Below are positions 1 to 15,855 of a DNA stretch of 32,000 bases, in pieces. Location: NCBI RefSeq assembly GCF_000145295.1, contig NC_014408.1, forward strand, positions 570,001 through 602,000. The letters run 5' to 3'. The stretch's first letter is position 1. Every line of letters starts with the position of its first letter. Position numbers and translations under genes: made by a program. The stretch is from Methanothermobacter marburgensis str. Marburg. Its GTDB lineage: Archaea; Methanobacteriota; Methanobacteria; Methanobacteriales; Methanothermobacteraceae. The notes under the pieces were generated by a model, which saw nothing but the letters and a program-made list of their open reading frames with translations, did no database searches and was not told the origin of the DNA.

Positions 1-1
1 T

Positions 2-1078
2 GAGGATAGAAGGAACCTCATAGCTGAACACAACCTCCATGTGAGCTTTGCAGAGATAAGGAAGGTCCGCCAGGCAATTTATGATGGGAGCCTAATGGAA
101 CTTGTTGAGGAGAGATGCAGGGCACATCCAAGGCTCCTTGAGGGATACAGGAGGATGTCGGCTTACGTTGAACTCTCTGAGAGATTCGAGCCAAGGTCCA
201 AACGCTCAGCATTCTTCTACACTGGACCAGAATCACTGGGGCGTGTTGAGGTTCACAGGCATCTTCAGTGGGTTAAGAAAAACCTGAAGGGAAGGATGGC
301 CATCGCAGGCCCATCAAGGAAACCCTACTCATCCACTTTACCCTCCAGTATCAGTGGTTTTCGCTCAATGAAGCCCCAGGCTGATGGAGAATGGAGTGTT
401 GTGGTTGCAGACGTACCCTTTGGCCTCATACCCCTTGAACTTGATCAGGTCTATCCACTCGCCCAGAGCGATGCGCCGGGTATCATGGATCTGGAGGCCA
501 GGCACTTCCTGAGGGAACTGATACTCGACCTTGAGGGGGACGTGATCATCAGTGAGGACCTCTGCAGTGAACTTGGACTTCAGCTTCCACACCCCTATTC
601 TGGGGAGGTGGAGACCTATGTTGATGACCTTGACCGCATAAGGATGATTGCAGAGTACCAGTTCGGTGAGGGGGCCGGCGATGCCCTTTTCCCTGATGAT
701 GTGAGGATTGAGAGAAGCCGTAACACAGGGAAGATAAGGCACATCTACTCAGGAGAGAAACTGATATGCACCATGAGGGCATCTGACGGCCTATTCGTGC
801 TCTCAGCCGAGGGTGCCAGGAGGCTTCATGATGGCACAGCCTACCCCCGCTGCAGGGTGGCCGTGAATGAGGAGTCTGAACCATTTGCAAGGGAGGGCAG
901 GAGTGTATTTGCAAAGTTTATAATTGACTGCGACAATAATATAAGGGCCGGTGATGAAGTTTTAATTGTTAATGCTCATGATGAACTTCTGGCCACAGGC
1001 AGGGCACTTCTCTGTGCCGAGGAGATGATGGACCTCAACCATGGTCAGGCAGTGAAAACCAGGAAAGGAGGATTTTAA
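2..1078 (+). CDS. tgtA: archaeosine tRNA-guanine transglycosylase, C-terminal part (5' end lies upstream of the window)
   Basis: The reading frame is open from base 2, with no stop before the first ATG at 41, so the gene enters the window already running. AEHNLHVSFAEIRKVRQAI...RAHPRLL resembles the end of the TGT barrel/C1 region. The last ~75 aa (RCRVAVNEESEPFAREGRSVFAKFI..GDEVLIVN..LLATGRAL) look like a PUA domain. The ArcS/TgtA2 paralog cannot be excluded from this fragment. Confidence 0.7.
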   Translation, partial: EDRRNLIAEHNLHVSFAEIRKVRQAIYDGSLMELVEERCRAHPRLLEGYRRMSAYVELSERFEPRSKRSAFFYTGPESLGRVEVHRHLQWVKKNLKGRMAIAGPSRKPYSSTLPSSISGFRSMKPQADGEWSVVVADVPFGLIPLELDQVYPLAQSDAPGIMDLEARHFLRELILDLEGDVIISEDLCSELGLQLPHPYSGEVETYVDDLDRIRMIAEYQFGEGAGDALFPDDVRIERSRNTGKIRHIYSGEKLICTMRASDGLFVLSAEGARRLHDGTAYPRCRVAVNEESEPFAREGRSVFAKFIIDCDNNIRAGDEVLIVNAHDELLATGRALLCAEEMMDLNHGQAVKTRKGGF

Positions 1079-1432
1079 ATGATACCGGGCATGGGAATGA
1101 ACCCAAAGCAGCTGAAACAGATGCAGAGGGCAATGAAGCAGATGGGAATGGATATGAAGGACCTCCGTGGCGTTGAGGAGGTTGTGATCAAACTCAAGAA
1201 GAAGGAGATCATAATAAAAAATCCCCGCGTGAATGTCATGGACTTCATGGGCCAGAAGACCTATCAGGTGACCGGCAAGGCCCGTGAATGTGACCTTGAA
1301 GCTGAGGTTAAGATACCCGATGATGACATTGAACTTGTCATGAACCAGACCGGTGTAAGCCGGGAGGAAGCCACCAGGGCCCTTCAGGAAACCGGGGGTG
1401 ACCTGGCAGAGGCCATTATGAGGTTGAGCTGA
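1079..1432 (+). CDS. nac: nascent polypeptide-associated complex protein (NAC alpha homolog with C-terminal UBA-like domain)
   Basis: The start abuts the tgtA stop with 0 nt gap. The N-terminus MNPKQLKQMQRAMKQMGMDM and the NAC beta-barrel core (EEVVIKLKKKEIIIKNPRVNVMDFMGQKTYQVTG) are present. The C-terminal LVMNQTGVSREEATRALQETGGDLAEAIMRL is UBA-like. Confidence 0.9.
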   Translation: MIPGMGMNPKQLKQMQRAMKQMGMDMKDLRGVEEVVIKLKKKEIIIKNPRVNVMDFMGQKTYQVTGKARECDLEAEVKIPDDDIELVMNQTGVSREEATRALQETGGDLAEAIMRLS

Positions 1433-2169
1433 TGGTCTTAATAGCCCATATCTCGGATCTCCATGTGGGCGCACCCAACTTCAAGGAGGACATACTCCTT
1501 GAGGCCATAAGACAGATAAATGAGCTTAAACCTGACGCAACCGTTATAACCGGTGACCTTACAGATAACGGCTACTACCTTGAATTCCTGCAGGCCGCCG
1601 AGTACCTCAGCGACCTCAAGGGGCCCCACATATTTGTTCCAGGGAACCATGATGCAAGACATGTGGGAAACGAGACCTTTGAGGATGTCTTCAGGTACAG
1701 GAAGGGGACCTTTGTGATGGATGACCTCACAATAATAGGACTTGACAGCAGTGAGCCTGATCTCGACTACGGCAAGATAGGGAGGTCCCAGCAGATCTGG
1801 ATGGAGGAGGAACTTGAGAGGGCCTCAGAGAGGGGACATTTCAGGGTTATAGCCCTCCACCACCACATAATACCTGTTCCCAAGACAGGCCGTGAGAGGA
1901 ACGTACTTGCAGATGCAGGGGACATACTCTATTCAATAATCAGGAAGGGCGCTGACCTGGTGATATCAGGCCACAAGCATGTCCCCCATGTCTGGAGGGT
2001 TGAGGACACTTTCTTTGTAACCGCCGGGACGGTTTCATCCCTTAAACTGAGGGGTAAAGATATTAATTCATATAATACATATTACATTACTGAGGATTCT
2101 ATAAGAATAGTTCTCAACCAGGTTCAGGGAGAAAGGATTGAACTGGCATCCCACAGCCTGCGGGAATAA
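1432..2169 (+). CDS. calcineurin-like metallophosphoesterase (Icc/CpdA-like motif set)
   Basis: The start overlaps the nac stop by 1 nt (TGATG). The full phosphoesterase motif series is present: SDLH (DxH), TGDLTD (GD), GNHD, ALHHH and SGHKH (GHxH). Confidence 0.85.
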   Translation: MVLIAHISDLHVGAPNFKEDILLEAIRQINELKPDATVITGDLTDNGYYLEFLQAAEYLSDLKGPHIFVPGNHDARHVGNETFEDVFRYRKGTFVMDDLTIIGLDSSEPDLDYGKIGRSQQIWMEEELERASERGHFRVIALHHHIIPVPKTGRERNVLADAGDILYSIIRKGADLVISGHKHVPHVWRVEDTFFVTAGTVSSLKLRGKDINSYNTYYITEDSIRIVLNQVQGERIELASHSLRE

Positions 2170-2187
2170 TCTCATTCAGGTGGTTAC

Positions 2188-3213
2188 TTGAGGGTAATTA
2201 TAGATGCATCGAACGTCGCCCATTCAAGGAAAAACGACGATGATAGGCCATGCATAGAGAATATACTGTCAGCGGCAGAGGAGCTTGAAAAACTCGGCTA
2301 TGAACCTGTTATAATTGCCGATGCATCCCTGCGACATGAGATAGATGATAAGGAGAAGTTCAGGAAACTCCTTGAGGAGGGGAAATTCCAGCAGGTTCCC
2401 TCAGGTACCACGGCTGATCACTTCATACTCAAGATGGCAGAGGAGGAGGATGCCAAGATACTCTCAAATGATGTATTCAGGGAGTACAAGGACGAGTTTC
2501 AGGACATAAACAGCAGGAGGATACCCTACACATTCAGGGATGACAGGATCCTCATAGGGACCTCTGGAAAGCCAAAGAAGGTTAAGAACATCCTCCAGAA
2601 AATCTGTAACGAGGCCCTCAAGGAATTCGAGAAGAAGAGGATAGACTCATATAAGGCCAAAAGGGGCAAGAAACTAAGCGGGATAGCCATAGCCAAGGAG
2701 GCCATTGACAGAATAAGCAGGAGTCAGGAGGAAGGCCTTGAACCCAAGCTTGAGGGTATATTCATGAAGCTCCCCCTCTTTGAGAAGTTCATGAGCATGG
2801 TGGAGGAGGTGGAGCGGACCAGCAACTACATAATATTCGTGCTGGTGCACCCCAGGGACTACAGGGAGGCGGTGAAGTACGCAGGTAACATTGCTGTAAC
2901 GGTTGGTGACAGGCTCAAACTGGAGCACGCCCCCCTGGTGGCTGTAAGGAACGACCTCTTCCTGAAACCAGGCACATTTGAACTGAACATAATGTACTCT
3001 GAGGACGTCATGGAGGAGGCCCCCTACAACGTTAACATAACCATAAATGATCATGATTACAGTTTTGTTAAGAAGAACTCAAGGAACATAGCAAGCACAA
3101 TCGCAGCCAGGATAGGATCATGGAGGTTCCCCATAGTATCTGTTAAACCCAGCATGCTGCTTGAGAAGCCAGGGGAATTCGATGTGGTTCTTGAAAAGGG
3201 AGGCAATGATTGA
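2188..3213 (+). CDS. Zc3h12a-like NYN-domain ribonuclease with uncharacterised ~150-aa C-terminal domain
   Basis: TTG start 6 nt after AGGTGG. The N-terminal ~125 aa match the NYN/Zc3h12a pattern: VIIDASNVAH, PVIIADASLRH, TTADHFILKMA, AKILSNDVFREY, with the acidic residues retained. A Lys-rich linker follows, then a C-terminal domain with no motif I recognise. Confidence 0.8.
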   Translation: MRVIIDASNVAHSRKNDDDRPCIENILSAAEELEKLGYEPVIIADASLRHEIDDKEKFRKLLEEGKFQQVPSGTTADHFILKMAEEEDAKILSNDVFREYKDEFQDINSRRIPYTFRDDRILIGTSGKPKKVKNILQKICNEALKEFEKKRIDSYKAKRGKKLSGIAIAKEAIDRISRSQEEGLEPKLEGIFMKLPLFEKFMSMVEEVERTSNYIIFVLVHPRDYREAVKYAGNIAVTVGDRLKLEHAPLVAVRNDLFLKPGTFELNIMYSEDVMEEAPYNVNITINDHDYSFVKKNSRNIASTIAARIGSWRFPIVSVKPSMLLEKPGEFDVVLEKGGND

Positions 3214-4418
3214 TGGTCATGGATTATCTGCTAAGGAAGATACTGGGATTTTTCATAGGACACAGGGTTCTGAGTATCGGGACCAAGTACATGCCCACCA
3301 ACAGTACAGAAAGGGAATACGTGGACATGCTCAACTACACAAAGACGATGCTCATAGAGATAGAAAGGGCCCATATCAACACCAGCAACATCTTCGATAA
3401 CCTCACAAGGGAACTTGGAACTGACAACATCCCCAAGAACAGAAAGTTCATTGAACTCAAACCTGCAGAGAACAGGGTTGACGAGTATGCGCTCCTCAGC
3501 AACATAATAATGGGAAGCGACCGCTACCTCTACATTGAGGTCTTCAACGGCGGGCGCATAATGGATGAATTTGTGTCCATAATAGAGAAGGAGAAGGGGA
3601 GGATCATCGAGAAGAGTTCAAGCGAGATACTCGCAAGGTTCCTCTCCAAGAACGACGCCATAAGGGTCGCCATAAAACTGATAGGCGCAGGGAGCAAAAG
3701 GGGGATAAATGTCAGGGCCGCCGCCGGAATGACGGGGGCCGCGGCAATTGAGAGGGCCATAAACCTCAACAGGGAGATAGGTGAGGTCCCAGGTGTTGGT
3801 TTCACAAAGCTGGGAGGGGAATTTGCGATAATATTCACCAGTGAATTCGAACCACTCTCAGGCAGCCCCTCATACCGTGACAACTACCTCTTCATTGACA
3901 TGATCGACTCAACAGGCTTCATAGAGAGGTTTGGCCGTGACAGCCTTGTTGAGATAATGAACGATATAAAGGCCTACATGGAGAATGACTGCAGGGGAAA
4001 GATCGAGGGTTACCGTGAGGGCGGGGACGACCTCATAGCAAACTTTCCCACAAAGGACATGGCTCTGAGGGCGGGGATAGATTCCGCATGGCATGCAATG
4101 GACAACGGAGCCAACATAAGGGTGGGTATCGGGAAGACCAGGCGGGAGGCCGGTGAAAGGGCCCAGATTGCCGACAGCATAAAGCTCTGGAACCCCACAT
4201 CAATCATGATATTTGATGTTGCAGATGGAATATACGGCTACTTCATCCCTTCACCCTTCACAAGGTCTGTTATTGACTTTCTGATGCATAAGAAGTCTGT
4301 GGCGCTCCTGGTGTTTGTATTTGTGTTCGTGGCAACCTTCCTTGGCTGGAATATGGGGCACTGGGAGTTTGGTCTTATCGCAATCCTCCTTGCCGTTATC
4401 TATGCGGCCACGGCATGA
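3210..4418 (+). CDS. membrane-anchored protein with cyclase/GGDEF/Cas10-like palm domain (GGDD motif), probably a tandem palm with a degenerate N-terminal copy
   Basis: The start is TTG 3210 or ATG 3213, and either overlaps the upstream stop (TGATG). Residues ~225-335 read YLFIDMIDSTGF..(30 aa)..YREGGDDLIANFPT..ALRAGIDSAWHA..IRVGIGKT..AGERAQIADS. This gives the order and spacing of a nucleotidyl cyclase/GGDEF palm, with the GGDD codons at 4020-4031. Two C-terminal hydrophobic helices are present (VALLVFVFVFVATFLGW, FGLIAILLAVIYAA). That it is a CDS is solid. The family assignment is by eye only. Confidence 0.7.
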   Translation: MMVMDYLLRKILGFFIGHRVLSIGTKYMPTNSTEREYVDMLNYTKTMLIEIERAHINTSNIFDNLTRELGTDNIPKNRKFIELKPAENRVDEYALLSNIIMGSDRYLYIEVFNGGRIMDEFVSIIEKEKGRIIEKSSSEILARFLSKNDAIRVAIKLIGAGSKRGINVRAAAGMTGAAAIERAINLNREIGEVPGVGFTKLGGEFAIIFTSEFEPLSGSPSYRDNYLFIDMIDSTGFIERFGRDSLVEIMNDIKAYMENDCRGKIEGYREGGDDLIANFPTKDMALRAGIDSAWHAMDNGANIRVGIGKTRREAGERAQIADSIKLWNPTSIMIFDVADGIYGYFIPSPFTRSVIDFLMHKKSVALLVFVFVFVATFLGWNMGHWEFGLIAILLAVIYAATA

Positions 4419-4435
4419 AAAGGAAAGTTATTTAA
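4418..4435 (+). promoter_or_regulatory. BRE/TATA-like element (AAAAGGAAAG-TTATTTAA) upstream of the small ORF/argJ/argB unit
   Basis: A purine-rich tract followed by TTATTTAA at 4428-4435, ~35 nt upstream of ATG 4469. No other AT-rich box lies before argJ. Confidence 0.4.
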
Positions 4436-4468
4436 GGGTACTTCAAGATAATAATAAGGGGAATTGAA

Positions 4469-4756
4469 ATGAGACCTGAAACCGAGGCTAAAATTATTGT
4501 TAGCTTCCTGATTTCCCTCATAGCATTTGGCTGCGGGTCAGGTCTGGGCATTGTTATAGGTCTTTCCAACGATAATATTACTGCAGTGGATATTAACGAT
4601 ACTCCATCCAGTGATGTCCAGCTCTCCCCCAGCAGCACCAACCACCTGCCCCTCAACGGGATAAAGGAGCGCGGCAGGGAGGAAGCCCAGAACAGTTACG
4701 GGGAAGTCAATGTTGTTAACAGCAACCAGGGGTCCTCCAACAATACAACCTTCTGA
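4469..4756 (+). CDS. small hypothetical single-pass membrane protein
   Basis: ATG preceded by AAGGGG. There is one clear TM helix (IIVSFLISLIAFGCGSGLGIVIGL) followed by a Ser/Asn/Thr-rich tail. It has its own BRE/TATA-like element upstream. No recognisable family. Confidence 0.45.
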   Translation: MRPETEAKIIVSFLISLIAFGCGSGLGIVIGLSNDNITAVDINDTPSSDVQLSPSSTNHLPLNGIKERGREEAQNSYGEVNVVNSNQGSSNNTTF

Positions 4757-4772
4757 GGGGATCCCACTGAAC

Positions 4773-4779
4773 TTTTTTT
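4773..4779 (+). terminator. T7 tract between the small ORF and argJ
   Basis: ACTTTTTTTGG lies 17 nt after the stop at 4756 and immediately before the argJ start region. It could be a partial or leaky terminator or an attenuator. Confidence 0.35.
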
Positions 4780-5995
4780 GGTAGGAGTGGATACTGTGAA
4801 AATCAGGTTTATTGAAGGCGGGGTCTGCGCTGTTGATGGAGTGCTCGCTGCAGGTTGCCGCGAAGGTAAATATGGCGTTGGGCTTATCGTCACCAGAAAA
4901 GCAACTGCAGCGGGTGTTTTAACATCCAACAGGGTCCGGGCAGAACCTGTTAAATTGACAGAGAAGGTCCTTGAGGGCGGCAGAATTTCAGCCATAGTTG
5001 CAAACAGTGGAAACGCCAACTGTTTTACAGGAAGAGACGGGATGGATGATGCCCTCAGGATGGCCAGGGTAACAGCAGAATCCCTGCAGGTGGATGCCGG
5101 TGAGGTTGCGGTTGCATCAACTGGCGTTATAGGAAGGAGGATGCCCATCAGGAAGATCGAGTCCCTCATAAGAATGGCTGCAGATCAACTTGAAAACTCC
5201 CCGGAAGCCTCAGGGAACCTTGCATCTGCAATAATGACCACAGACACATTCCCCAAGGAGGTTGCGGTGGAGTTCCAGCTTGAAGGCGGTGAGACCGCCC
5301 GTATAGGTGCTGTTGCCAAGGGTTCAGGTATGATAGCCCCAAACATGGCCACAATGCTCTCCTTCATAACAACTGATGTTGATGCATCACCTTCAGAGCT
5401 CAGGGAGGCCCTCAGGAGGGCTGTTGACGACACCTTCAACATGCTCATAGTGGACGGTGATGAAAGCACCAATGACATGGTTATAATGGCATCAACCTGC
5501 AAATCAGGGAGGATAGATGAGAACTTCACTGAGGCCCTTGGGGTCGTCTGCAGGGAACTTGCCCGTATGATGGCACGTGACGGTGAGGGGGCCACCAAGT
5601 CATTCCAGGTCGATGTTGTGAATGCCAGGACACGGGAGGATGCAAGGAGGGCCGCCAGGGCAATCGCAGGTTCATCCCTCGTTAAGACGGCAATATTTGG
5701 GGCCGACCCCAACTGGGGACGTATAGTTGCGGCTGCAGGATATTCAGGTGCAGAGTTCGACCCCGACAGGATAAGTGTGACCCTAGAATCTGAGAACGGA
5801 TCTGTGGGAATAGTTGAGGAGGGGGATGTACTGGCCTTTGAGGGCAAACCTGAACTTGAACTTGCAGAGAGGATAATGGGTGATGATGAGATAAGGATAA
5901 CAGTTGACCTCAACGCCGGCAGTGAATCGGCAACTGCATACGGCTGTGATCTCACCTATGACTATGTGAGGATAAATGCTGAGTATACTACTTAA
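4778..5995 (+). CDS. argJ: bifunctional ornithine acetyltransferase / N-acetylglutamate synthase ArgJ
   Basis: Autoproteolytic site context KGSGMIAPNMATMLSFITTD. Family blocks DGDESTND and DPNWGRIVAAAG, and the C-terminal DLTYDYVRINAEYTT. The true start is more likely GTG 4787 or 4796, after GGAGTG, than the TTG at 4778, which lies inside a T7 tract. Confidence 0.93.
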   Translation: MVGVDTVKIRFIEGGVCAVDGVLAAGCREGKYGVGLIVTRKATAAGVLTSNRVRAEPVKLTEKVLEGGRISAIVANSGNANCFTGRDGMDDALRMARVTAESLQVDAGEVAVASTGVIGRRMPIRKIESLIRMAADQLENSPEASGNLASAIMTTDTFPKEVAVEFQLEGGETARIGAVAKGSGMIAPNMATMLSFITTDVDASPSELREALRRAVDDTFNMLIVDGDESTNDMVIMASTCKSGRIDENFTEALGVVCRELARMMARDGEGATKSFQVDVVNARTREDARRAARAIAGSSLVKTAIFGADPNWGRIVAAAGYSGAEFDPDRISVTLESENGSVGIVEEGDVLAFEGKPELELAERIMGDDEIRITVDLNAGSESATAYGCDLTYDYVRINAEYTT

Positions 5996-6028
5996 AGTGA
6001 TGTATTTATTGTGGTGAAGGGTGTTTGA

Positions 6029-6910
6029 ATGAAGACCGTTAACATTCTGGTGGAGGCACTCCCCTACATCAAGAAGTTTCACAAGAAGAAGATAATGATA
6101 AAGTATGGCGGCCACGCCATGATAGATGAGGCTGCAATGGACTCGACCGCACGGGATACTGTGCTGTTGAAGTATGTGGGTATGGAGCCGGTGGTTGTCC
6201 ATGGAGGCGGCCCTGAGATTTCAAGGGCCATGAACAAGATGGGCAAGGAGCCAAGGTTCATAGAGGGCCTCAGGGTTACAGATGAGGAGACCATGGAGAT
6301 CGTCAAGATGGTTCTTGTGGGTAAGATAAACACGAGCATCGTCTCAAAGATATGCTACCATGGAGGAAGGGCCATAGGACTGTCAGGTAAGGACAGCAAC
6401 CTTCTCCTTGCAAAAAAGAGGGCTCCACATGTTGTTAAGGATAGTGAAACAGGTGAGAGAAGGGAGATAGACCTTGGACTTGTGGGTGAAATTGAATCAG
6501 TGGACCCAAGCATAATCAACATGCTCACAGATAACAACTACATCCCTGTGATATCACCCATCGGTGTTGACAGGAACGCCAACACACTGAACCTCAATGC
6601 AGATACGGTTGCAGGTGAGGTTGCAGCGGGTATAGGGGCAGAGAAGCTTATAGTCTTAACAGATGTGCCTGGAATACTCGAGGACCCCTCAGATCCCGAC
6701 ACCCTCATAAGGAAGGTGACTGTTGATGAACTCAGCGACCTTGTAAAGAGCGGTATAGTGGAGGGGGGGATGCTCCCCAAGACACTCACATGCATACAGG
6801 CCATAAATGATGGTGTCTCCTCAGCCCATATAATAGATGGAAGGGTTGAGCACTCACTTCTACTTGAAATATTCACAAAGAAGGGAATCGGGACCATGAT
6901 AACCAAGTGA
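6029..6910 (+). CDS. argB: acetylglutamate kinase
   Basis: Amino-acid kinase family blocks: [43 protein letters not shown], and LTDVPGIL followed by GGMLPK. Confidence 0.95.
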
Positions 6911-6940
6911 TTGCTTCATGGTCTCTCTTAATTTACTCAG

Positions 6941-7045
6941 CTAATTCCTTTTTTATGGCATGGGCCATTTCCATGGTACTGGCACTTCCTATTCATCTAA
7001 TTCCTTTTTTATGGCATGGGCCATTTCCATGGTACTGGCATTTCC
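6941..7045. repeat. 56-bp-period tandem duplication of the dehydrogenase gene 3' end (two copies, 48/49 identical core)
   Basis: 6941-6989 and 6997-7045 are identical over 44 nt and 48/49 overall. The second copy is the genuine 3' coding end of the minus-strand gene (..STMEMAHAIKKELDE*). The first copy lies just past the stop and would read ..SASTMEMAHAIKKELAE*, with its own TAA. Confidence 0.95.
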
Positions 7046-7978
7046 CCCAAGATCCGGTGTCATTATACCCTTAAGCAGAGTCCTTTCCAGTGCTTTCTGT
7101 ATTTTCTGTGCTTCCTGTGTTTTGTTTAGGTGTTTTAGCATGAGTGTTGTTGTTAGTATCATGGCTGTGGGGTTTGCTATGTTTTTTCCGGCTATCTGGG
7201 GTGCTGATCCGTGGACTGGTTCGAATATTGCGTTTTTTTCTCCTATATTTGCTGATGGCGCGAGTCCGAGTCCTCCTATGAGTCCTGCTGCTTCGTCTGA
7301 GACTATGTCCCCGAAGAGGTTGGTTGTGACCAGGACCTGGAATTCCTGGGGCTGTGTTATGAGGTACATGGCTGTGGCGTCCACGTAGTAGTCCTCTGCC
7401 TCCATCCCAGGGTACTTTGATGCCACCCGGTAGAATTCCTCCCTGAACACCCCATCGGTTTTTTTAAGGACATTTGCCTTGTGCACCGCGGTCACACGAG
7501 TCCACCCCTCCCTCTTAGCATACTCAAAGGCAAATCGACTTATCCTCCTGGATGCGGAGCGTGTTATGATCCTCCTTGCAACAGCCCCATCAGCGGTGAA
7601 CTCCTCATCACCCACATAGAGGTCCTCAGTGTTCTCCCTCACTATGACAAAGTCAAGGTCAGGGTAGAGGCACGGCACACCAGGAAGGGACTTCACAGGC
7701 CTCAAATTCGCAAAAAGATCAAGCTCACGCCTCAATGTAATAATGGCACTCTTCTGGCCGGGCACGGTTGTAACTGCACCAAAGAGTGTTGCATCGGACC
7801 TTCTGACGAGTTTCACTGTTTCCTCTGGTATGGTTTCACCGCACCTCATGAAGCACTCATTACCTGCCTCTGCATACACAAATTCCAGTTCAAGGTCCAG
7901 TCCTCCAAGAACGTGGAGGGCGGCTTCCATAACCTCCTTACCGATACCATCACCGGGTATAACTGTTATCCTGTACAT
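6989..7978 (-). CDS. isopropylmalate / homoisocitrate dehydrogenase family (beta-decarboxylating dehydrogenase)
   Basis: N-terminal ITVIPGDGIGKEV, then LFGAV, IVRENTEDLYVG, TNLFGDIVSDEAAGLIGGLGLAPSANIG and FEPVHGSAPQIAGKNIANP. I cannot tell LeuB from AksF by eye. Confidence 0.9.
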   Translation of the reverse strand: MYRITVIPGDGIGKEVMEAALHVLGGLDLELEFVYAEAGNECFMRCGETIPEETVKLVRRSDATLFGAVTTVPGQKSAIITLRRELDLFANLRPVKSLPGVPCLYPDLDFVIVRENTEDLYVGDEEFTADGAVARRIITRSASRRISRFAFEYAKREGWTRVTAVHKANVLKKTDGVFREEFYRVASKYPGMEAEDYYVDATAMYLITQPQEFQVLVTTNLFGDIVSDEAAGLIGGLGLAPSANIGEKNAIFEPVHGSAPQIAGKNIANPTAMILTTTLMLKHLNKTQEAQKIQKALERTLLKGIMTPDLGGNASTMEMAHAIKKELDE

Positions 7979-8025
7979 CTGAACACCTTAAGTTTAATTC
8001 CATGAATTCAGATTCCATGTGAGAT

Positions 8026-11105: not shown

Positions 11106-11684
11106 ATGATAAGGATAGGCATTCTTGATCTTCAGGGCGATGTTTCCGAGCACCTCGAGATGACCCGGAGGGCAGTTGAGAGGATGGATGTGGATGCAGA
11201 GGTAGTGAAGGTGAGAACAGCGGAGGATGCATCAGCTGTAGATGCAATAATAATCTCCGGCGGTGAGAGCACCGTCATAGGTAAACTCATGGAGGAGACA
11301 GGGATAAAGGATGTTATCCTCACCGAGAACAAAGCAGTGATGGGGACCTGTGCCGGGATGGTTCTTCTTGCAAGGGAAACAGACTATGAACAGCCCCTCC
11401 TGGGACTCATAGACATGAAGGTTAAGAGAAACGCCTTTGGAAGGCAGAAGGATTCCTTTGAGGAAGACATAGAGATACTTGGAAGAAAATTCCATGGAAT
11501 ATTCATAAGGGCGCCAGCTGCCGTCGAAGTGGGTGAGGGGGCCGAGGTACTGTCCAGAATCGATGAAGGGATCATCGCAGTGAAGGAGGGCTGCAACCTT
11601 GCACTTGCCTTCCACCCTGAACTGGGAGAGAACACGGGACTTCACGAATACTTTATAAAGGAGGTATTGAATTGTGTGGAATAG
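11106..11684 (+). CDS. pdxT: pyridoxal 5'-phosphate synthase glutaminase subunit PdxT
   Basis: IGILDLQGDVSEH, IIISGGESTV, GTCAGMVLL (nucleophile Cys) and the C-terminal AFHPEL are all present, as in the PdxT/SNO family. Confidence 0.9.
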   Translation: MIRIGILDLQGDVSEHLEMTRRAVERMDVDAEVVKVRTAEDASAVDAIIISGGESTVIGKLMEETGIKDVILTENKAVMGTCAGMVLLARETDYEQPLLGLIDMKVKRNAFGRQKDSFEEDIEILGRKFHGIFIRAPAAVEVGEGAEVLSRIDEGIIAVKEGCNLALAFHPELGENTGLHEYFIKEVLNCVE

Positions 11685-12589
11685 CAGGAGTGGTCTACAA
11701 GGATGGTAAACTTCATAACGTTGGGGCAGACATGACGAGGATGCTCCATGCGCTGCAGCACAGGGGCCCCGACTCAGCGGGTTTCTCAATCTATGGAGGT
11801 CTTGGTCTTGAGGAGAACGAGTACCTCCTTAACATTGAGGTTAAAGAAAAGAAGGGGCTTCTTGAGAGGGTCAAGGAAACAGTTGAAACGGTGAGCCCCA
11901 TAAGGAAGGATGAGGTCATCCCATCAGTTGAGAACTACATAATATACCGCTGCAGGATCACCCTTGAATCATTCTCACAGCTTAAACCACTCATAATGGA
12001 GATAGACAGGATAGAGGATGTCATAGTACTCAATGGAAGCCACTCCTTTGAAATGATAAAGGATGTGGGATCTGTACTTGAAATAGCAGACCGCTACGAC
12101 ACCTGGTCAAAGAAGGGCACACATGCCATAGGCCACACAAGGTTCTCGACAGAGAGCATAGTTGACAGGTACCATGCACACCCCTTCCAGAGCTACATCA
12201 TCCCTGACATAACTGTGGTACACAACGGCCAGATAACCAACTACTGGAAGATAAGGGAACCCCTTGAGAGGAAGGGACACATATTCGAGACAAACAACGA
12301 CACAGAATGTATAGTCCACTACGTTGCAGATAAACTGGCATCAGGCTACAGCCTGGAGGAGGCACTTGAACAGTCAGTGAAGGACATGGACGGACCTTTC
12401 TCATACATAGTCGGAACACCCACCGGTGTGGGTATAGCAAAGGACCAGCTCGGCCTCAGGCCAGGGGTGATGGCAGAGAACGATGAGGTATTCGCGGTTG
12501 CATCAGAGGAGGTCTCCCTGAGGGAGGTCATGGATACAACCGAGGTTGAACAGATATCCCCCGGCGAGGTCAGGGTATACGAGATATAG
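11672..12589 (+). CDS. glutamate synthase, class-II (Ntn) glutamine amidotransferase domain protein
   Basis: TTG start directly followed by CGIAG, the N-terminal Cys nucleophile. HRGPDSAG, IGHTRFST and VHNGQITN are present. The gene overlaps the pdxT end by 13 nt. Confidence 0.9.
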   Translation: MCGIAGVVYKDGKLHNVGADMTRMLHALQHRGPDSAGFSIYGGLGLEENEYLLNIEVKEKKGLLERVKETVETVSPIRKDEVIPSVENYIIYRCRITLESFSQLKPLIMEIDRIEDVIVLNGSHSFEMIKDVGSVLEIADRYDTWSKKGTHAIGHTRFSTESIVDRYHAHPFQSYIIPDITVVHNGQITNYWKIREPLERKGHIFETNNDTECIVHYVADKLASGYSLEEALEQSVKDMDGPFSYIVGTPTGVGIAKDQLGLRPGVMAENDEVFAVASEEVSLREVMDTTEVEQISPGEVRVYEI

Positions 12590-12595
12590 GGTGAT

Positions 12596-13288
12596 ATGAT
12601 GAGGGAAGCAGTAGTTGATGCAGAATCAAAAACCCCCAGGGAGGTTAACAGGGCCATAAAGAGCCTGGCAAAGGACCACGACAGGATAGTGGTTAAAAAC
12701 CCCAACGCCATGCACTACATCGGCGCGGGACTCACAGAGGACGTGGAGCTCATAATAGATGGTTCAGCCGGATACTTCGCCGCGACAATGATACACGGCC
12801 CAAGGGTTAAGATAAATGGTAACGCAGGATGGTTCCCTGCAGACAACATGACAGAAGGTGAGGTCATAATAGAGGGATCCGCTGGAGACGGAGTCGGACA
12901 GGGAATCTACGGCGGAACAGTCGTTGTAAGGAAGGGAGCAGGGTCAAGGACAGGAGAGATAATGAAGAACGGGACCATCATCATAGGTGGAAACTCAGGT
13001 TTCATGACAGGCCTATTCATGATGGGCGGCCGCATAATAGTCCTGGGGGACCTTGCAGAGGACGCCGGGGAGTCCATCATAAGGGGAACGATATACGTTG
13101 GTGGAGAAATAAAAAGCCTTGGAAAGAACGCAAAGGTTGAGGACATAACCCCTGAGGAGGAAGAGGAACTCAGAGGCGTCCTCTCAGCATACGGATTTGA
13201 ACTTGAGGATGAGGAATACCATTCCTTCAGAAAGATTGTCCCAAGAAGCAAAAGGCCATTCTATGGCGAAGAATCGGAGGAAGGATAA
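12596..13288 (+). CDS. glutamate synthase GXGXG-repeat domain protein (GltB C-terminal / FwdC-like beta-helix)
   Basis: Repeated Gly-rich turns: IDGSAGYF, INGNAGWF, IEGSAGDGVGQG, GGTVVV.KGAG and IIIGGNSG. Confidence 0.85.
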   Translation: MMREAVVDAESKTPREVNRAIKSLAKDHDRIVVKNPNAMHYIGAGLTEDVELIIDGSAGYFAATMIHGPRVKINGNAGWFPADNMTEGEVIIEGSAGDGVGQGIYGGTVVVRKGAGSRTGEIMKNGTIIIGGNSGFMTGLFMMGGRIIVLGDLAEDAGESIIRGTIYVGGEIKSLGKNAKVEDITPEEEEELRGVLSAYGFELEDEEYHSFRKIVPRSKRPFYGEESEEG

Positions 13289-14343
13289 TGAGCAGATATG
13301 CAATGGTCGGAACACCCTGCCAGATAACAGCAGCCACACTGATGAAGGAATATAACGGGGAATTCCCTGTTGAACTCAGAATCGGGCTCTTTTGCATGGA
13401 GAACTTCTCCTACACCTACCTGAGGGAACTTGCAGAGGCGGAGGGTGTTGACCTCAGGGATGTTTCAGAGTGCAGGATAGAGAAGGGCAGGCTCTGGTTC
13501 CACCTCAACGATGGAAGCACAGTATCCATACCACTTGAAAGGGCCAGGTCTGCAATGAGAAAGAACTGCTCTGTGTGCATGGACTTCACATCAGAACAGT
13601 CAGACGTTTCAGTGGGATCTGTGGGCTCACCGCAGGGATGGTCAACACTCATAATAAGGACGGAAAGGGGCAGAGAGCTGGTTGATGGGGCCGCAAAGGC
13701 AGGATACATTGAGACAGCACCCATAACCGGGAAGGGCCTCAAACTTCTTGAAAAACTTGCATCAGGTAAAAAGGAGGAGAACCTTGAGGAGATACAGAGA
13801 AGGGAATCAGTTGCGAGGCCCGTACTCTACTGGAGGGTGATGCCCGGGGACCTCTACCCTGAGGAAATTAAGGACTGCCAGTTCGATGATCTTCGGGCAG
13901 ATGTCATCGATGTTGGCGCATGCGTGCTCTGCGGGGCCTGCGAGGCGTCATGCCCGGAGGGTATTGTGAGGATAAACGACAGAAAACCTGAGGTTAAGGG
14001 CGGATGTCCCGGGGGCTGCAACGCATGCTATGTGGCATGTCCAAGGACCTACGTACCCGACAGCATAATAAGTCACGAGTCCGCGGCCGAACCACTGGGG
14101 GAGTACACTGAGATACTATCTGCAAGGGCCCCCATGTTCAGGGGCCAGGATGGTGGTGTTGTAACCGCACTCCTGACCTATGCCCTCAGGGAGGGAATCG
14201 TGGACGGGGCACTGGTGGTTGACAGGGACCCTGCAATGCCATGGAAACCCGTACCTGTACTGGCAGAGGATCCAGAGGATGTTGTGAGGGCTGCAGGTAC
14301 CAAGTACTCAGTATGCCCGATATTGAAGGTATTAAAGGAGTAA
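13288..14343 (+). CDS. FrhB/FdhB-family F420-interacting subunit with inserted 2x[4Fe-4S] ferredoxin motifs (domain order permuted)
   Basis: TAATG overlap with the upstream gene. The N-terminal half has VGTPCQI, LFCMENFSY and SVGSVGSPQGWSTLIIRTERG, typical of the FrhB C-terminal domain. Next come CVLCGACEASCP and CNACYVACP. Last comes GQDGGVVTALLTYALREGIVDGALVV...AAGTKYS, typical of the FrhB N-terminal domain. Confidence 0.85.
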   Translation: MSRYAMVGTPCQITAATLMKEYNGEFPVELRIGLFCMENFSYTYLRELAEAEGVDLRDVSECRIEKGRLWFHLNDGSTVSIPLERARSAMRKNCSVCMDFTSEQSDVSVGSVGSPQGWSTLIIRTERGRELVDGAAKAGYIETAPITGKGLKLLEKLASGKKEENLEEIQRRESVARPVLYWRVMPGDLYPEEIKDCQFDDLRADVIDVGACVLCGACEASCPEGIVRINDRKPEVKGGCPGGCNACYVACPRTYVPDSIISHESAAEPLGEYTEILSARAPMFRGQDGGVVTALLTYALREGIVDGALVVDRDPAMPWKPVPVLAEDPEDVVRAAGTKYSVCPILKVLKE

Positions 14344-14355
14344 GAGGGGTTAAAG

Positions 14356-15855
14356 ATGCCTTTTAAGGTTGAGAGAAAGGAAGATGTATGTAAGAGGAAC
14401 TTTGACCGTCCCGGCTGCTGCTGGTACATGTGTGATAACCGGGACGAGTCACTCTGTGCAAACTGTTACTCATGCTATAACAACTGTCCACATGATGTTT
14501 ACGAGATAATAAACGGGGAACCAGTACCCCTGAGGCATGAAAACTGTGTGGGGTGCCGTATATGTGAGGAGATGTGCCCCAACAATGCAATAGAGGTTAA
14601 CGCCGTACCCGAGGACCGGAGGAATGTATGGTCATTCACTGACCTGCTTGAGATACAGAGGAAATCCAGGGAGGGTTCCTACAAGGTCAGGGGCTGCGGT
14701 GCGGTGAGGAGGATACCCACCTTTGACGACCTTGTGATCATACCGGCCCAGGTCTCAAGGCCACCCATAGATAAGTACAGGGAGCCCTGCAATACCAGGG
14801 TGGTGCTGGGTGACAGGTTCGCCGAGAACCCCCTGGAACTTGACACACCAATCATGATAGCGGCCATGTCCTTCGGCGCCCTCAGCAAGGAGGCCAAGAT
14901 AGCCCTTGCAATGGGGGCAACCCTTGCAGGCACAGCCACAAACACAGGTGAGGGGGGAATGCTCCCTGAGGAGCGTAAATACGCCTCAAAACTTATTGCA
15001 CAGTATGCATCAGGACGCTTCGGTGTCTCTGCAGAGTACCTCAACAATTCAGAGGCCATTGAGATCAAGATAGGTCAGGGTGCCAAGTCAGGTATGGGCG
15101 GACATCTGCTTGCAGAGAAGGTAACAGCGGAGGTCTCAAGGATAAGGATGATACCAGAGGGTACCGATGCACTGAGCCCGGCAAGGCACATGGACATCGT
15201 TGGACCTGAGGATCTCAGCATGAAGATATCCCAGCTTCGTGAGATAACCGACTGGAAGGTCCCGATAATGGTCAAGTTCACATCAGGCCGTGTTGCCGAT
15301 GATGTGAAGATAGCTGCAAAGGCAGGGGCCGATATAGTCGTGGTTGATGGTATGCAGGGAGGTACCGGTGCAGGACCTGACGTTGTAACCGAGCACTCAG
15401 GTATACCCACAATAGCAGCCATAGTGGAGGCCGATGAGGCCCTCAAGGAGGTCAACCTCCGTGATGAGGTGAGCCTTGTTGCAGCAGGTGGTATAAGGAG
15501 CGGGGCTGACGTTGCAAAGGCCATCGCACTTGGTGCGGATGCGGTCTACATCGGTACAGCGGCCCTTGTCTCGATTGGCTGCCGTGTCTGCCAGATGTGC
15601 TACACAGGCACCTGCAGAAAGGGTATTGCAACCCAGGACCCACGCCTCAGGAAGCGCCTTGACTATGTTGAGGCAGGTAAAAACGTTGCAAGGTACATAG
15701 AGGCCATGACAGAGGAGGTGTGCATGCTCATACAGCAGGCTGGTAACACTGACGTGAGCAAACTTGAGAAGGATGACCTCAGGGCGCTCACCGTGGAGGC
15801 CTCGGCACTTACGGGAGTTAAGATGGCTGGAATGGAGGCGCCGGCCCGGTTTTAG
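14356..15855 (+). CDS. glutamate synthase FMN-binding (synthase) domain protein with N-terminal 2x[4Fe-4S] ferredoxin
   Basis: CANCYSCYNNCP and CVGCRICEEMCP at the N-terminus. GltB domain-2 blocks follow: ISAMSFGALS, NTGEGG, QGAKSGMGGHL, DGMQGGTGA and AAGGIRSGADVAKAIALGADAV. Confidence 0.92.
   Translation: MPFKVERKEDVCKRNFDRPGCCWYMCDNRDESLCANCYSCYNNCPHDVYEIINGEPVPLRHENCVGCRICEEMCPNNAIEVNAVPEDRRNVWSFTDLLEIQRKSREGSYKVRGCGAVRRIPTFDDLVIIPAQVSRPPIDKYREPCNTRVVLGDRFAENPLELDTPIMIAAMSFGALSKEAKIALAMGATLAGTATNTGEGGMLPEERKYASKLIAQYASGRFGVSAEYLNNSEAIEIKIGQGAKSGMGGHLLAEKVTAEVSRIRMIPEGTDALSPARHMDIVGPEDLSMKISQLREITDWKVPIMVKFTSGRVADDVKIAAKAGADIVVVDGMQGGTGAGPDVVTEHSGIPTIAAIVEADEALKEVNLRDEVSLVAAGGIRSGADVAKAIALGADAVYIGTAALVSIGCRVCQMCYTGTCRKGIATQDPRLRKRLDYVEAGKNVARYIEAMTEEVCMLIQQAGNTDVSKLEKDDLRALTVEASALTGVKMAGMEAPARF

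Follow-up and report, generated by a model that had tools for sequence, protein, structure and literature searches.

A conserved gene pair of pseudomurein-containing methanogens encodes a tandem cyclase-like membrane protein and a partner domain and may form a nucleotide-signalling module

We analysed a 32,000-nucleotide (nt) stretch of Methanothermobacter marburgensis str. Marburg (NC_014408.1, positions 570,001 to 602,000; the window, whose numbering is used throughout) that carries three consecutive genes for a metallophosphoesterase (MPE), a NYN ribonuclease fused to an orphan domain that we call domain X (NYN-X), and a 401-amino-acid (aa) cyclase-like membrane protein. An earlier reading made from the sequence alone (the sequence-only reading) had proposed that these genes form a nucleotide-second-messenger module, in which a palm-domain protein makes a signal, the NYN protein responds by cleaving RNA and the phosphoesterase removes the signal. 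A relative of the 401-aa protein is present in 228 genomes, and comparison of the 80 loci retrieved from these, together with Methanopyrales, indicates that the ancestral, selectively maintained unit is domain X plus the tandem cyclase-like membrane protein. This unit of two genes is confined to the methanogens that contain pseudomurein, namely Methanobacteriales and Methanopyrales, and the NYN RNase is a fusion to X on the Methanobacteriales side. We favour, with a probability of about 0.45, the reading that the pair is a housekeeping nucleotide-signal synthase coupled via domain X to a Regnase-type RNase.

The 401-aa protein, its two domains and its Methanobrevibacter and Methanopyrus orthologues have no Pfam match (PF00211 included) at E<=1 to 10. 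Its AlphaFold model has two beta-alpha-beta-beta-alpha-beta units in succession (residues ~105-208 and ~225-344) and, after them, two helices at the C-terminus. Searching the PDB with this model, Foldseek returned 57 matches at E<=1e-3, headed by class III adenylyl cyclases: AC9 C1-C2 (E 4e-6), bPAC/OaPAC, Rv1900c, Ma1120, CyaB and soluble adenylyl cyclase (sAC). Foldseek probability is ~1.0 for Rv1900c, Ma1120, CyaB, bPAC, AC9 and sAC, and the single-domain matches (Rv1900c, Ma1120) have a target TM-score of ~0.5 and a root-mean-square deviation (rmsd) of ~3.5 Å over ~130 columns. The cyclases are followed by Csm1/Cas10 (4uw2, 6kbd and 6o78; E 8e-5 to 7e-4) and by GTP cyclohydrolase III (GCH III, MJ0145; 2qv6, E 2e-4, target TM-score 0.33, rmsd ~14 Å). 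A family profile (A3) that includes Methanopyrus and Methanobrevibacter matches the Rv1900c cyclase domain (1ybt) at E 6.9e-4, a narrower profile giving E 0.41; the A3 alignment pairs D229 with the FTDIVGST Asp and D272 with that of the GD hairpin. GCH III is found neither in the PDB profile search at E<=10 (2qv6) nor among Pfam matches. There is no Pfam match to GGDEF (PF00990) either; the motif reads GGDDL, and no diguanylate cyclase occurs among the best 50 of the 57 Foldseek matches. Structure model, profile match and an internal repeat described below together support the earlier assignment of the product of 3213-4418 to a palm or cyclase fold. A specific affinity to Cas10 and the minimal CRISPR polymerase mCpol is not supported, as measurable similarity of both sequence and structure is highest to class III cyclases.

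The two units of the protein are related to each other. Domain A aligns to domain B with hhalign (probability 97.4%, E 1e-11) and also to Methanopyrus domain B (E 1e-6), and it is degenerate, with E109 in place of D229 and SSSE (135-138) in place of GGDD. Because the units are homologous and the first is degenerate, the protein is best described as a pseudo-heterodimer within one chain, made of two cyclase/palm domains and ending in a hydrophobic hairpin; AC9 C1-C2 and sAC are matched in tandem by Foldseek. D229 and G270-G271-D272-D273 are invariant in all 80 Methanobacteriales loci and in four Methanopyrales lineages. Conservation of the acidic residues in FIDMID (3891-3908) and GGDD, on which the earlier proposal leaned, holds for D229 and GGDD; D232 is not invariant. 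Of the three observations that the sequence-only reading had named as refuting its proposal, none was made for this protein. R268 lies four residues before D272, where Rv1900c has Asn, and conserved ER pairs occur on alpha4 of both domains; for these residues, equivalence to the base-specifying Lys/Asp(Thr) and transition-state Asn/Arg residues of cyclases is unreliable. The model lacks a beta5-beta6 dimerisation arm, and its C-terminal helices (361-380 and 385-400) coincide with the hydrophobic hairpin. The first 100 residues (window 3213-3500) have no known match and an AlphaFold confidence score (pLDDT) of 30-45; GTKY.P, E33, N41 and E91-x-AL-x-S within them are invariant out to Methanopyrus. 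They could be a further domain, perhaps a docking site for X.

The N-terminal domain of the NYN-X protein is a bona fide member of PF11977, in line with the NYN assignment of the sequence-only reading. Residues 2-137 match this family at E 7e-31 (107 bits, cut-off 23 bits), profile searches match ZC3H12A/B/C and KHNYN structures at E ~2e-4, and AlphaFold models the domain with a pLDDT of ~85. D6, N9, D77, S93 and D95, which align to the catalytic positions of Regnase-1, are invariant; one Regnase Asp (D225) is replaced by Ala. The remainder of the protein, domain X, carries the invariant motifs PLVxVRNDL and RxIASTxAxR...FPxVxVK, and the alignment of the whole NYN-X protein (A2) has a mean column identity of 82%. 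We rejected domain X as a third palm copy (hhalign against the cyclase-like protein, probability 1.8%). A match of the A2 profile to ADP-dependent phosphofructokinase 6c8z (E 2.5e-4), which covers the K/E-rich linker, is taken as compositional because it is lost with an X-only profile that includes Methanopyrus.

Homologues of the cyclase-like protein fall into ~880 clusters, essentially all from Methanobacteriales, that are 56-99% identical (66-72% between genera), and the family appears to be more conserved than most enzymes. A hidden Markov model scan of 1.84 billion representative sequences found one 50%-identity cluster, fragments and one distant full-length relative, from Methanopyrus (P0131). 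The M. marburgensis protein is 99% identical to one of a Methanothermobacter sp., and locus L001 (NZ_JBNASF010000005.1) shares the gene string. Three further sequences show unusual contexts: in P0158, a vWA-like N-terminus (DRSGSMSG) is joined to the family's last beta-hairpin and transmembrane (TM) anchor, and in P0144 and P0167 fragments of the N-terminal region are fused to unrelated sequence. Either modular reuse or chimeric assembly may account for them. A repetitive surface protein of 3398 aa, which gave 24 matched stretches in the scan of representatives, was discarded as spurious.

The 80 loci, almost all labelled Methanobacteriales, lie at one shared chromosomal position, and the order tgtA-nac-MPE-NYN-cyclase-like-argJ-argB holds wherever the contig reaches. 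This order is a family-wide synteny block that does not single out the trio. It is from the places where the block is broken, Methanobrevibacter and Methanopyrales, that we derive the unit of X and the cyclase-like protein. In Methanobrevibacter, tgtA and argJ are no longer close by and ~350-600 nt lie between MPE and NYN, while NYN and the cyclase-like gene are still coupled (with an 8-nt overlap in locus L079). In Methanopyrales, the cyclase-like gene is 25-31% identical and retains the D and GGDD residues, and a stand-alone X protein of 232-241 aa is encoded 1-15 nt upstream of it (four lineages; 1 nt in Methanopyrus). This protein matches only domain X (residues 133-333; 31-33% identity, E 2e-29) and is without a NYN domain; no NYN or MPE gene is found nearby, and all other neighbours of the pair differ from those in Methanobacteriales. 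Methanopyrus KOL6 shows none of MPE, nac and tgtA within 10 kb. The expected co-occurrence beyond the genus was thus found for NYN-X, which is directly upstream of the cyclase-like gene in 79/79 informative Methanobacteriales loci, and for domain X in Methanopyrales as well. For the MPE it holds only inside the Methanobacteriales synteny block, and the proposed three-gene unit is not supported, as the MPE is absent near the Methanopyrales pair and distant in Methanobrevibacter. In all the Methanopyrales loci (L081 and L082, which are the same KOL6 region, L083, L084 and L085), thiC and an RNA-ligase-family gene (PF09414) come next after the pair in the same orientation, with overlaps or gaps close to zero.

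The plus strand of the window reads, in order, the 3' part of tgtA, nac, MPE, NYN-X and the cyclase-like gene, followed by a 95-aa open reading frame (ORF) with one TM segment, argJ and argB. The three tight junctions noted earlier are read directly from the sequence: two TGATG overlaps, and between them an 18-nt gap (2170-2187) that follows the MPE stop codon TAA (2167-2169), contains AGGTGG at 2178-2183 and precedes the NYN start codon, TTG at 2188. Most likely ATG 3213, and not TTG 3210, starts the third gene, because its orthologues are 401 aa long and begin MV.DY. Across loci, the median gaps, which are approximate because they are taken from tblastn hit ends, are 3 nt from nac to MPE (69 loci), 24 nt from MPE to NYN and 9 nt from NYN to the palm gene (79 loci). 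Tight spacing alone is no better than chance, because close junctions are ordinary in this compact genome: the tgtA/nac gap is 0 nt, and in other parts of the window adjacent same-strand genes of unrelated function overlap or are spaced by 3-12 nt. What makes the linkage meaningful is the comparative data.

The MPE was identified in the sequence-only reading as an Icc/CpdA-type enzyme, and this agrees with its position nearest to the Rv0805/Icc cyclic-nucleotide phosphodiesterases (closest solved relatives Rv0805, E 8e-12, and GpdQ, E 2e-8). The metal ligands D9, H11, D42, N72, H73, H143-145, H181 and H183 are invariant in ~70 loci, as are all calcineurin-type motifs (D-x-H, GD, GNHD, HHH and GHxH). 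Against the CpdA equivalog model PRK11148 of NCBIfam it scores 51 bits, with a cut-off of 225. It is a plausible candidate for a signal-degrading enzyme and a possible accessory of the module.

In the signalling reading, the C-terminal two-helix hairpin would hold the cyclase-like protein at the cytoplasmic membrane face. Metals bound by D229 and D272 would support two-metal catalysis that converts nucleoside triphosphates into a cyclic mono- or oligonucleotide, by analogy with class III cyclases, GGDEF enzymes and Cas10. Domain X would bind the product or dock directly on the synthase, and in Methanobacteriales it would gate the fused NYN RNase. Regulated RNA cleavage is proposed as the output in this order because X is fused there to an intact Regnase-type NYN RNase. 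The Rv0805/CpdA-like MPE may degrade the signal. A more ambitious version, which we think unlikely, would see here the nucleotide-signalling pathway so far missing from the picture of Methanothermobacter and its relatives. In this version, a divergent tandem cyclase tethered to the membrane would make cyclic AMP (cAMP) or another cyclic (oligo)nucleotide, domain X would be a previously unknown nucleotide-sensor fold that switches the Regnase-type RNase, and the Rv0805-like esterase would reset the system. Such a circuit would be specific to pseudomurein-walled archaea and might make mRNA turnover dependent on envelope or membrane state.

Several results weigh against the signalling reading. 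The cyclase likeness of the 401-aa protein is remote (10-20% identity, E only 1e-4 to 1e-6), the confidence of the underlying model is only medium (pLDDT 71), and the protein has no NCBIfam or PADLOC match. Enzymes with a cyclase fold are also not all signalling enzymes, GCH III among the matches being an example. Domain X has no match in Pfam, NCBIfam or the PDB in sequence and profile searches and is not folded by AlphaFold (pLDDT ~30); to cast it as a signal receiver is conjecture, and it has no match to a known nucleotide sensor. In Methanopyrales, X has no fused effector, which leaves the output there unexplained. As to the MPE, its linkage is limited to the synteny block that includes tgtA and nac, and in the available part of the supplement of Lupo et al. 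(PMC11915815) 'phosphoesterase' is not among the listed pseudomurein-specific entries.

These last points bear on whether the module comprises NYN-X and the cyclase-like gene alone, with the MPE a housekeeping phosphoesterase that has no relation to them and just shares the nac/tgtA string. We consider this an even bet, a judgement that stands independently of the weight given to the other readings. The MPE sits between nac and NYN in all 72 Methanobacteriales loci that reach far enough, and its closest solved relatives are cyclic-nucleotide phosphodiesterases. It is nevertheless closer to nac than to NYN by median gap, it is separated from NYN in Methanobrevibacter while NYN and the palm gene stay tight, and it is missing from the published pseudomurein-specific entries to the extent just stated. 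There is no Metallophos gene within 10 kb of the cyclase-like gene in Methanopyrus KOL6, and one ~8 kb away in another Methanopyrales lineage (C-terminal part only) does not match the MPE at E<=1e-3. A different possibility, which we think unlikely, is that X and the cyclase-fold protein form a membrane-associated enzyme complex outside signalling, acting in a nucleotide-dependent step of the pseudomurein envelope or in a GCH-III-like nucleotide conversion, with the NYN fusion and the MPE neighbour being secondary. The membrane anchor, the enzyme-like extreme conservation of X (82% mean column identity, for the whole NYN-X protein) and a phyletic pattern exactly that of pseudomurein-containing archaea are all in keeping with it, and GCH III, a non-signalling enzyme with tandem cyclase-like domains, is a fold match. 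Sequence likeness to GCH III is absent from both the Pfam and the PDB profile searches, however, and the RNase fusion of X is hard to square with a cell-wall enzyme. The two orders, Methanobacteriales and Methanopyrales, both belong to the class I methanogens and may be closely related, so that the distribution may reflect shared ancestry and not the wall. Lupo et al. judged the gene cluster formed by this pair, their cluster D, to be probably uninvolved in pseudomurein synthesis, and it is not adjacent to the pseudomurein clusters A and B (PMC11915815).

The translation-related neighbours tgtA and nac would also suit an RNA-processing or repair set, in which RNA is recognised by X and cut by NYN, the palm protein works on RNA ends as a template-independent nucleotidyltransferase, and cyclic-phosphate or phosphodiester ends are trimmed by the MPE; Rv0805/GpdQ-type MPEs are reported to be promiscuous phosphodiesterases. 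The PF09414 RNA ligase family gene two genes downstream in all Methanopyrales loci examined could be counted for this set, and palm domains of the superfamily have been unified with the Thg1 RNA-repair polymerase (PMC12657218). We nevertheless hold it to be distinctly improbable: by fold, the protein matches cyclases and Cas10 rather than Thg1 or another polymerase, a membrane anchor would be unexpected, thiC separates the Methanopyrales module from the ligase in what is generic tight packing, and the window shows neither RNA families nor tRNA features. Anti-phage abortive infection of the type III CRISPR, CBASS, Pycsar or Panoptes kind, with a synthase, a nuclease effector and a ring-nuclease-like esterase, is the least credible reading and has very little chance of being right. 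It is suggested by the set of domains itself (GGDD palm, nuclease, phosphodiesterase), by Csm1 among the fold matches, by mCpol genes that are sometimes coupled to RNases, and by the best NCBIfam match of the MPE, an 'anti-phage phosphoesterase' model. That match reaches 67 bits against a cut-off of 420, and PADLOC returns nothing for the synthase or for X and only a marginal RT_VII-A2 match for NYN-X (E 0.003). The 80 loci retrieved share a chromosomal position at high identity, as described above, and the neighbours are tgtA, nac and genes for arginine (argJ and argB), malate, vitamin B6 and glutamate synthase. A search of 50,697 phage records, 72,556 plasmids and the viral contigs of IMG/VR found no homologue of the cyclase-like protein, which makes a defence role unlikely. 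The module is probably a chromosomal, core and vertically inherited housekeeping regulator, not phage defence, and the sequence-only reading's caveat that housekeeping was at least as likely as defence was well placed, given the core vertical distribution and the lack of mobile-element homologues and PADLOC matches.

Compared with known systems, the 401-aa protein most resembles class III cyclases (transmembrane adenylyl cyclase (tmAC) C1-C2, sAC, Rv1900c and Ma1120), which give its best structural and only significant sequence matches. It shares with them the two acidic ligands at the beta1 and beta2-beta3 hairpin positions, and with the pseudo-heterodimeric cyclases two homologous domains per chain, an acidic pair in only one of them and membrane attachment. 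Unlike class III cyclases, it has no PF00211 match and a shorter domain, in whose model beta4 leads straight to alpha4 without a dimerisation arm; it has GGDD instead of xGD and a C-terminal hairpin anchor instead of a 6-TM bundle. Its acid-bearing copy is C-terminal, whereas that of tmAC and sAC is the N-terminal C1. In this last respect it is like Cas10 (Csm1/Cmr2), where the degenerate copy precedes the GGDD-bearing copy (Palm1/Palm2), and the GGDD beta-hairpin and the Csm1 fold match (E ~8e-5) are further likenesses. The synthase gene is, as in Cas10 and mCpol systems, coupled to a partner gene, which is RNase-bearing in one lineage; unlike in these systems, there are no cas genes, no CARF, SAVED or S-2TMbeta partner and no HD domain. 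The mCpol/OptS protein of Panoptes (PMC12657218, PMC12657230), nearest among minimal palm synthases (PMC12657218), is a single small oligomerising palm, while the 401-aa protein is a tandem fusion with its own TM anchor. The partners of mCpol/Panoptes are S-2TMbeta, CARF-2TM and SAVED-2TM effectors and occasionally HEPN RNases, and mCpol systems are rare and widely scattered (PMC12657218), in contrast to the core vertical distribution seen here. No mCpol/OptS is recognisable among the best 50 of the 57 Foldseek matches, and none occurs in the PDB profile search.

The gene string also resembles the bacterial cAMP circuit, in that a cyclase-fold gene and an Rv0805-like MPE gene occur together and have a housekeeping character. 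It differs in having no CRP or other cNMP-binding receiver, the candidate receiver being an orphan domain fused to an RNase, and in an MPE that falls below the CpdA cut-off. The NYN domain has the catalytic Asp/Asn/Ser set of Regnase-1/ZC3H12, KHNYN and N4BP1. Unlike these proteins, it is accompanied by no CCCH zinc finger, KH or UBA domain; its partner is domain X, which in Methanopyrales occurs without NYN.

The gene pair has been flagged before in a published table but was not analysed there. Lupo et al. 2025 (mSystems, PMC11915815) list cluster D as the pseudomurein-archaea-specific orthologous groups OG0001213, annotated 'Zc3h12a-like ribonuclease NYN domain', and OG0001214, annotated 'Nucleotide cyclase', the latter with 1-2 TM segments in their supplement. 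Their InterProScan assigns SSF55073 / G3DSA:3.30.70.1230 to the Methanopyrus cyclase member only, and the Methanopyrus member of OG0001213 carries no NYN annotation in the supplement. The 'Nucleotide cyclase' assignment and the missing NYN annotation thus agree independently with the present results, which add the tandem-domain architecture, the conserved D and GGDD residues, the MPE neighbour and the observation that what Methanopyrus has in common with the NYN-X protein is domain X alone. In M. thermautotrophicus, cAMP was detected in 1986. A 2023 review notes that it occurs in archaea, Methanothermobacter among them, and that no archaeal protein that makes, degrades or binds it has been characterised (PMC10249747). 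Archaeal nucleotide second messengers are poorly understood, and the module offers a candidate synthase, receiver domain, RNase output and phosphodiesterase. If the signalling reading is true, the synthase-plus-effector-nuclease logic of defence has a core, vertically inherited housekeeping counterpart, of which the pair is a lineage-specific variant. Because the pair is confined to pseudomurein-containing methanogens, which include the gut genus Methanobrevibacter, it is also a lineage-specific target. Genetic tools now exist for Methanothermobacter.

Table 1 Coordinates of the module and its parts in the window
Feature	Position	Strand	Basis or remark
nac	1079-1432	+	
nac/MPE junction, TGATG	1430-1434	+	nac stop TGA 1430-1432 overlaps MPE ATG 1432-1434
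MPE, 245 aa, Icc/Rv0805/GpdQ-like	1432-2169	+	PF00149, E 3e-21
NYN-X, 341 aa	2188-3213	+	
NYN (Zc3h12a/Regnase-type PIN-like) RNase domain, residues 1-137	2188-2598	+	PF11977
Domain X, residues ~133-341, K/E-rich helical region and alpha/beta core	2584-3213	+	Orphan
NYN-X/cyclase-like junction, TGATG	3211-3215	+	NYN stop TGA 3211-3213 overlaps ATG 3213-3215
Tandem cyclase/palm-domain membrane protein, 401 aa	3213-4418	+	AlphaFold, Foldseek and homologues
Domain A, residues ~100-212, degenerate cyclase-like copy	3510-3848	+	hhalign against domain B
Domain B, residues ~220-347, keeps acidic pair	3870-4253	+	A3 profile, Foldseek
D229 codon, predicted first metal-binding Asp	3897-3899	+	Invariant in 80/80 loci and Methanopyrales
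GGDD hairpin, residues 270-273, D272 predicted second metal-binding Asp	4020-4031	+	Invariant in 80/80 loci and four Methanopyrales
C-terminal hydrophobic hairpin, two predicted TM helices (361-381 and 383-401)	4293-4415	+	Kyte-Doolittle scan

We also examined the genes around the module. At 1-1078, tgtA is cut by the left window edge. Because the final positions of the TGT catalytic-domain model align with the first 30 residues encoded here, this segment is read as the C-terminal half (TGT_C2 and PUA) of a full-length archaeosine tRNA-guanine transglycosylase, not as a separate tgtA2; the same gene position in L079 holds a 659-aa ORF. Downstream of the cyclase-like gene, the 95-aa ORF (4469-4756) has one N-terminal hydrophobic segment and a Ser/Asn-rich tail and is detected in 43/80 loci, mostly by its N-terminal part. 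It is probably outside the module because in Methanobrevibacter it adjoins argJ, with 1.5 kb between it and the cyclase-like gene. A stretch of seven T at 4773-4779, just after the stop codon of this ORF (4754-4756), abuts the argJ TTG start at 4778 and may be an archaeal oligo-T terminator that divides the string from tgtA to the small ORF from argJ-argB. No archaeal TATA-like box was found in 1-8000 with the patterns used.

Farther downstream, a ~44-nt sequence, CTAATTCCTTTTTTATGGCATGGGCCATTTCCATGGTACTGGCA, is present twice within 6941-7040, 56 nt apart. The first copy is located downstream of argB, in the intergenic space between convergent genes, and the second forms the 3' end of a minus-strand gene (6989-7978) that by eye is isocitrate/isopropylmalate dehydrogenase-like; the pair looks like a short tandem duplication of the gene end. 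The rest of the window holds genes of central metabolism and transporters. These include a tightly packed, split archaeal-type glutamate synthase set at 11672-15855 (GATase, GXGXG, FrhB/FdhB-like and Glu_synthase+Fer4), which is preceded by pdxT (SNO) and a malate/lactate dehydrogenase gene and followed by two MFS transporters.

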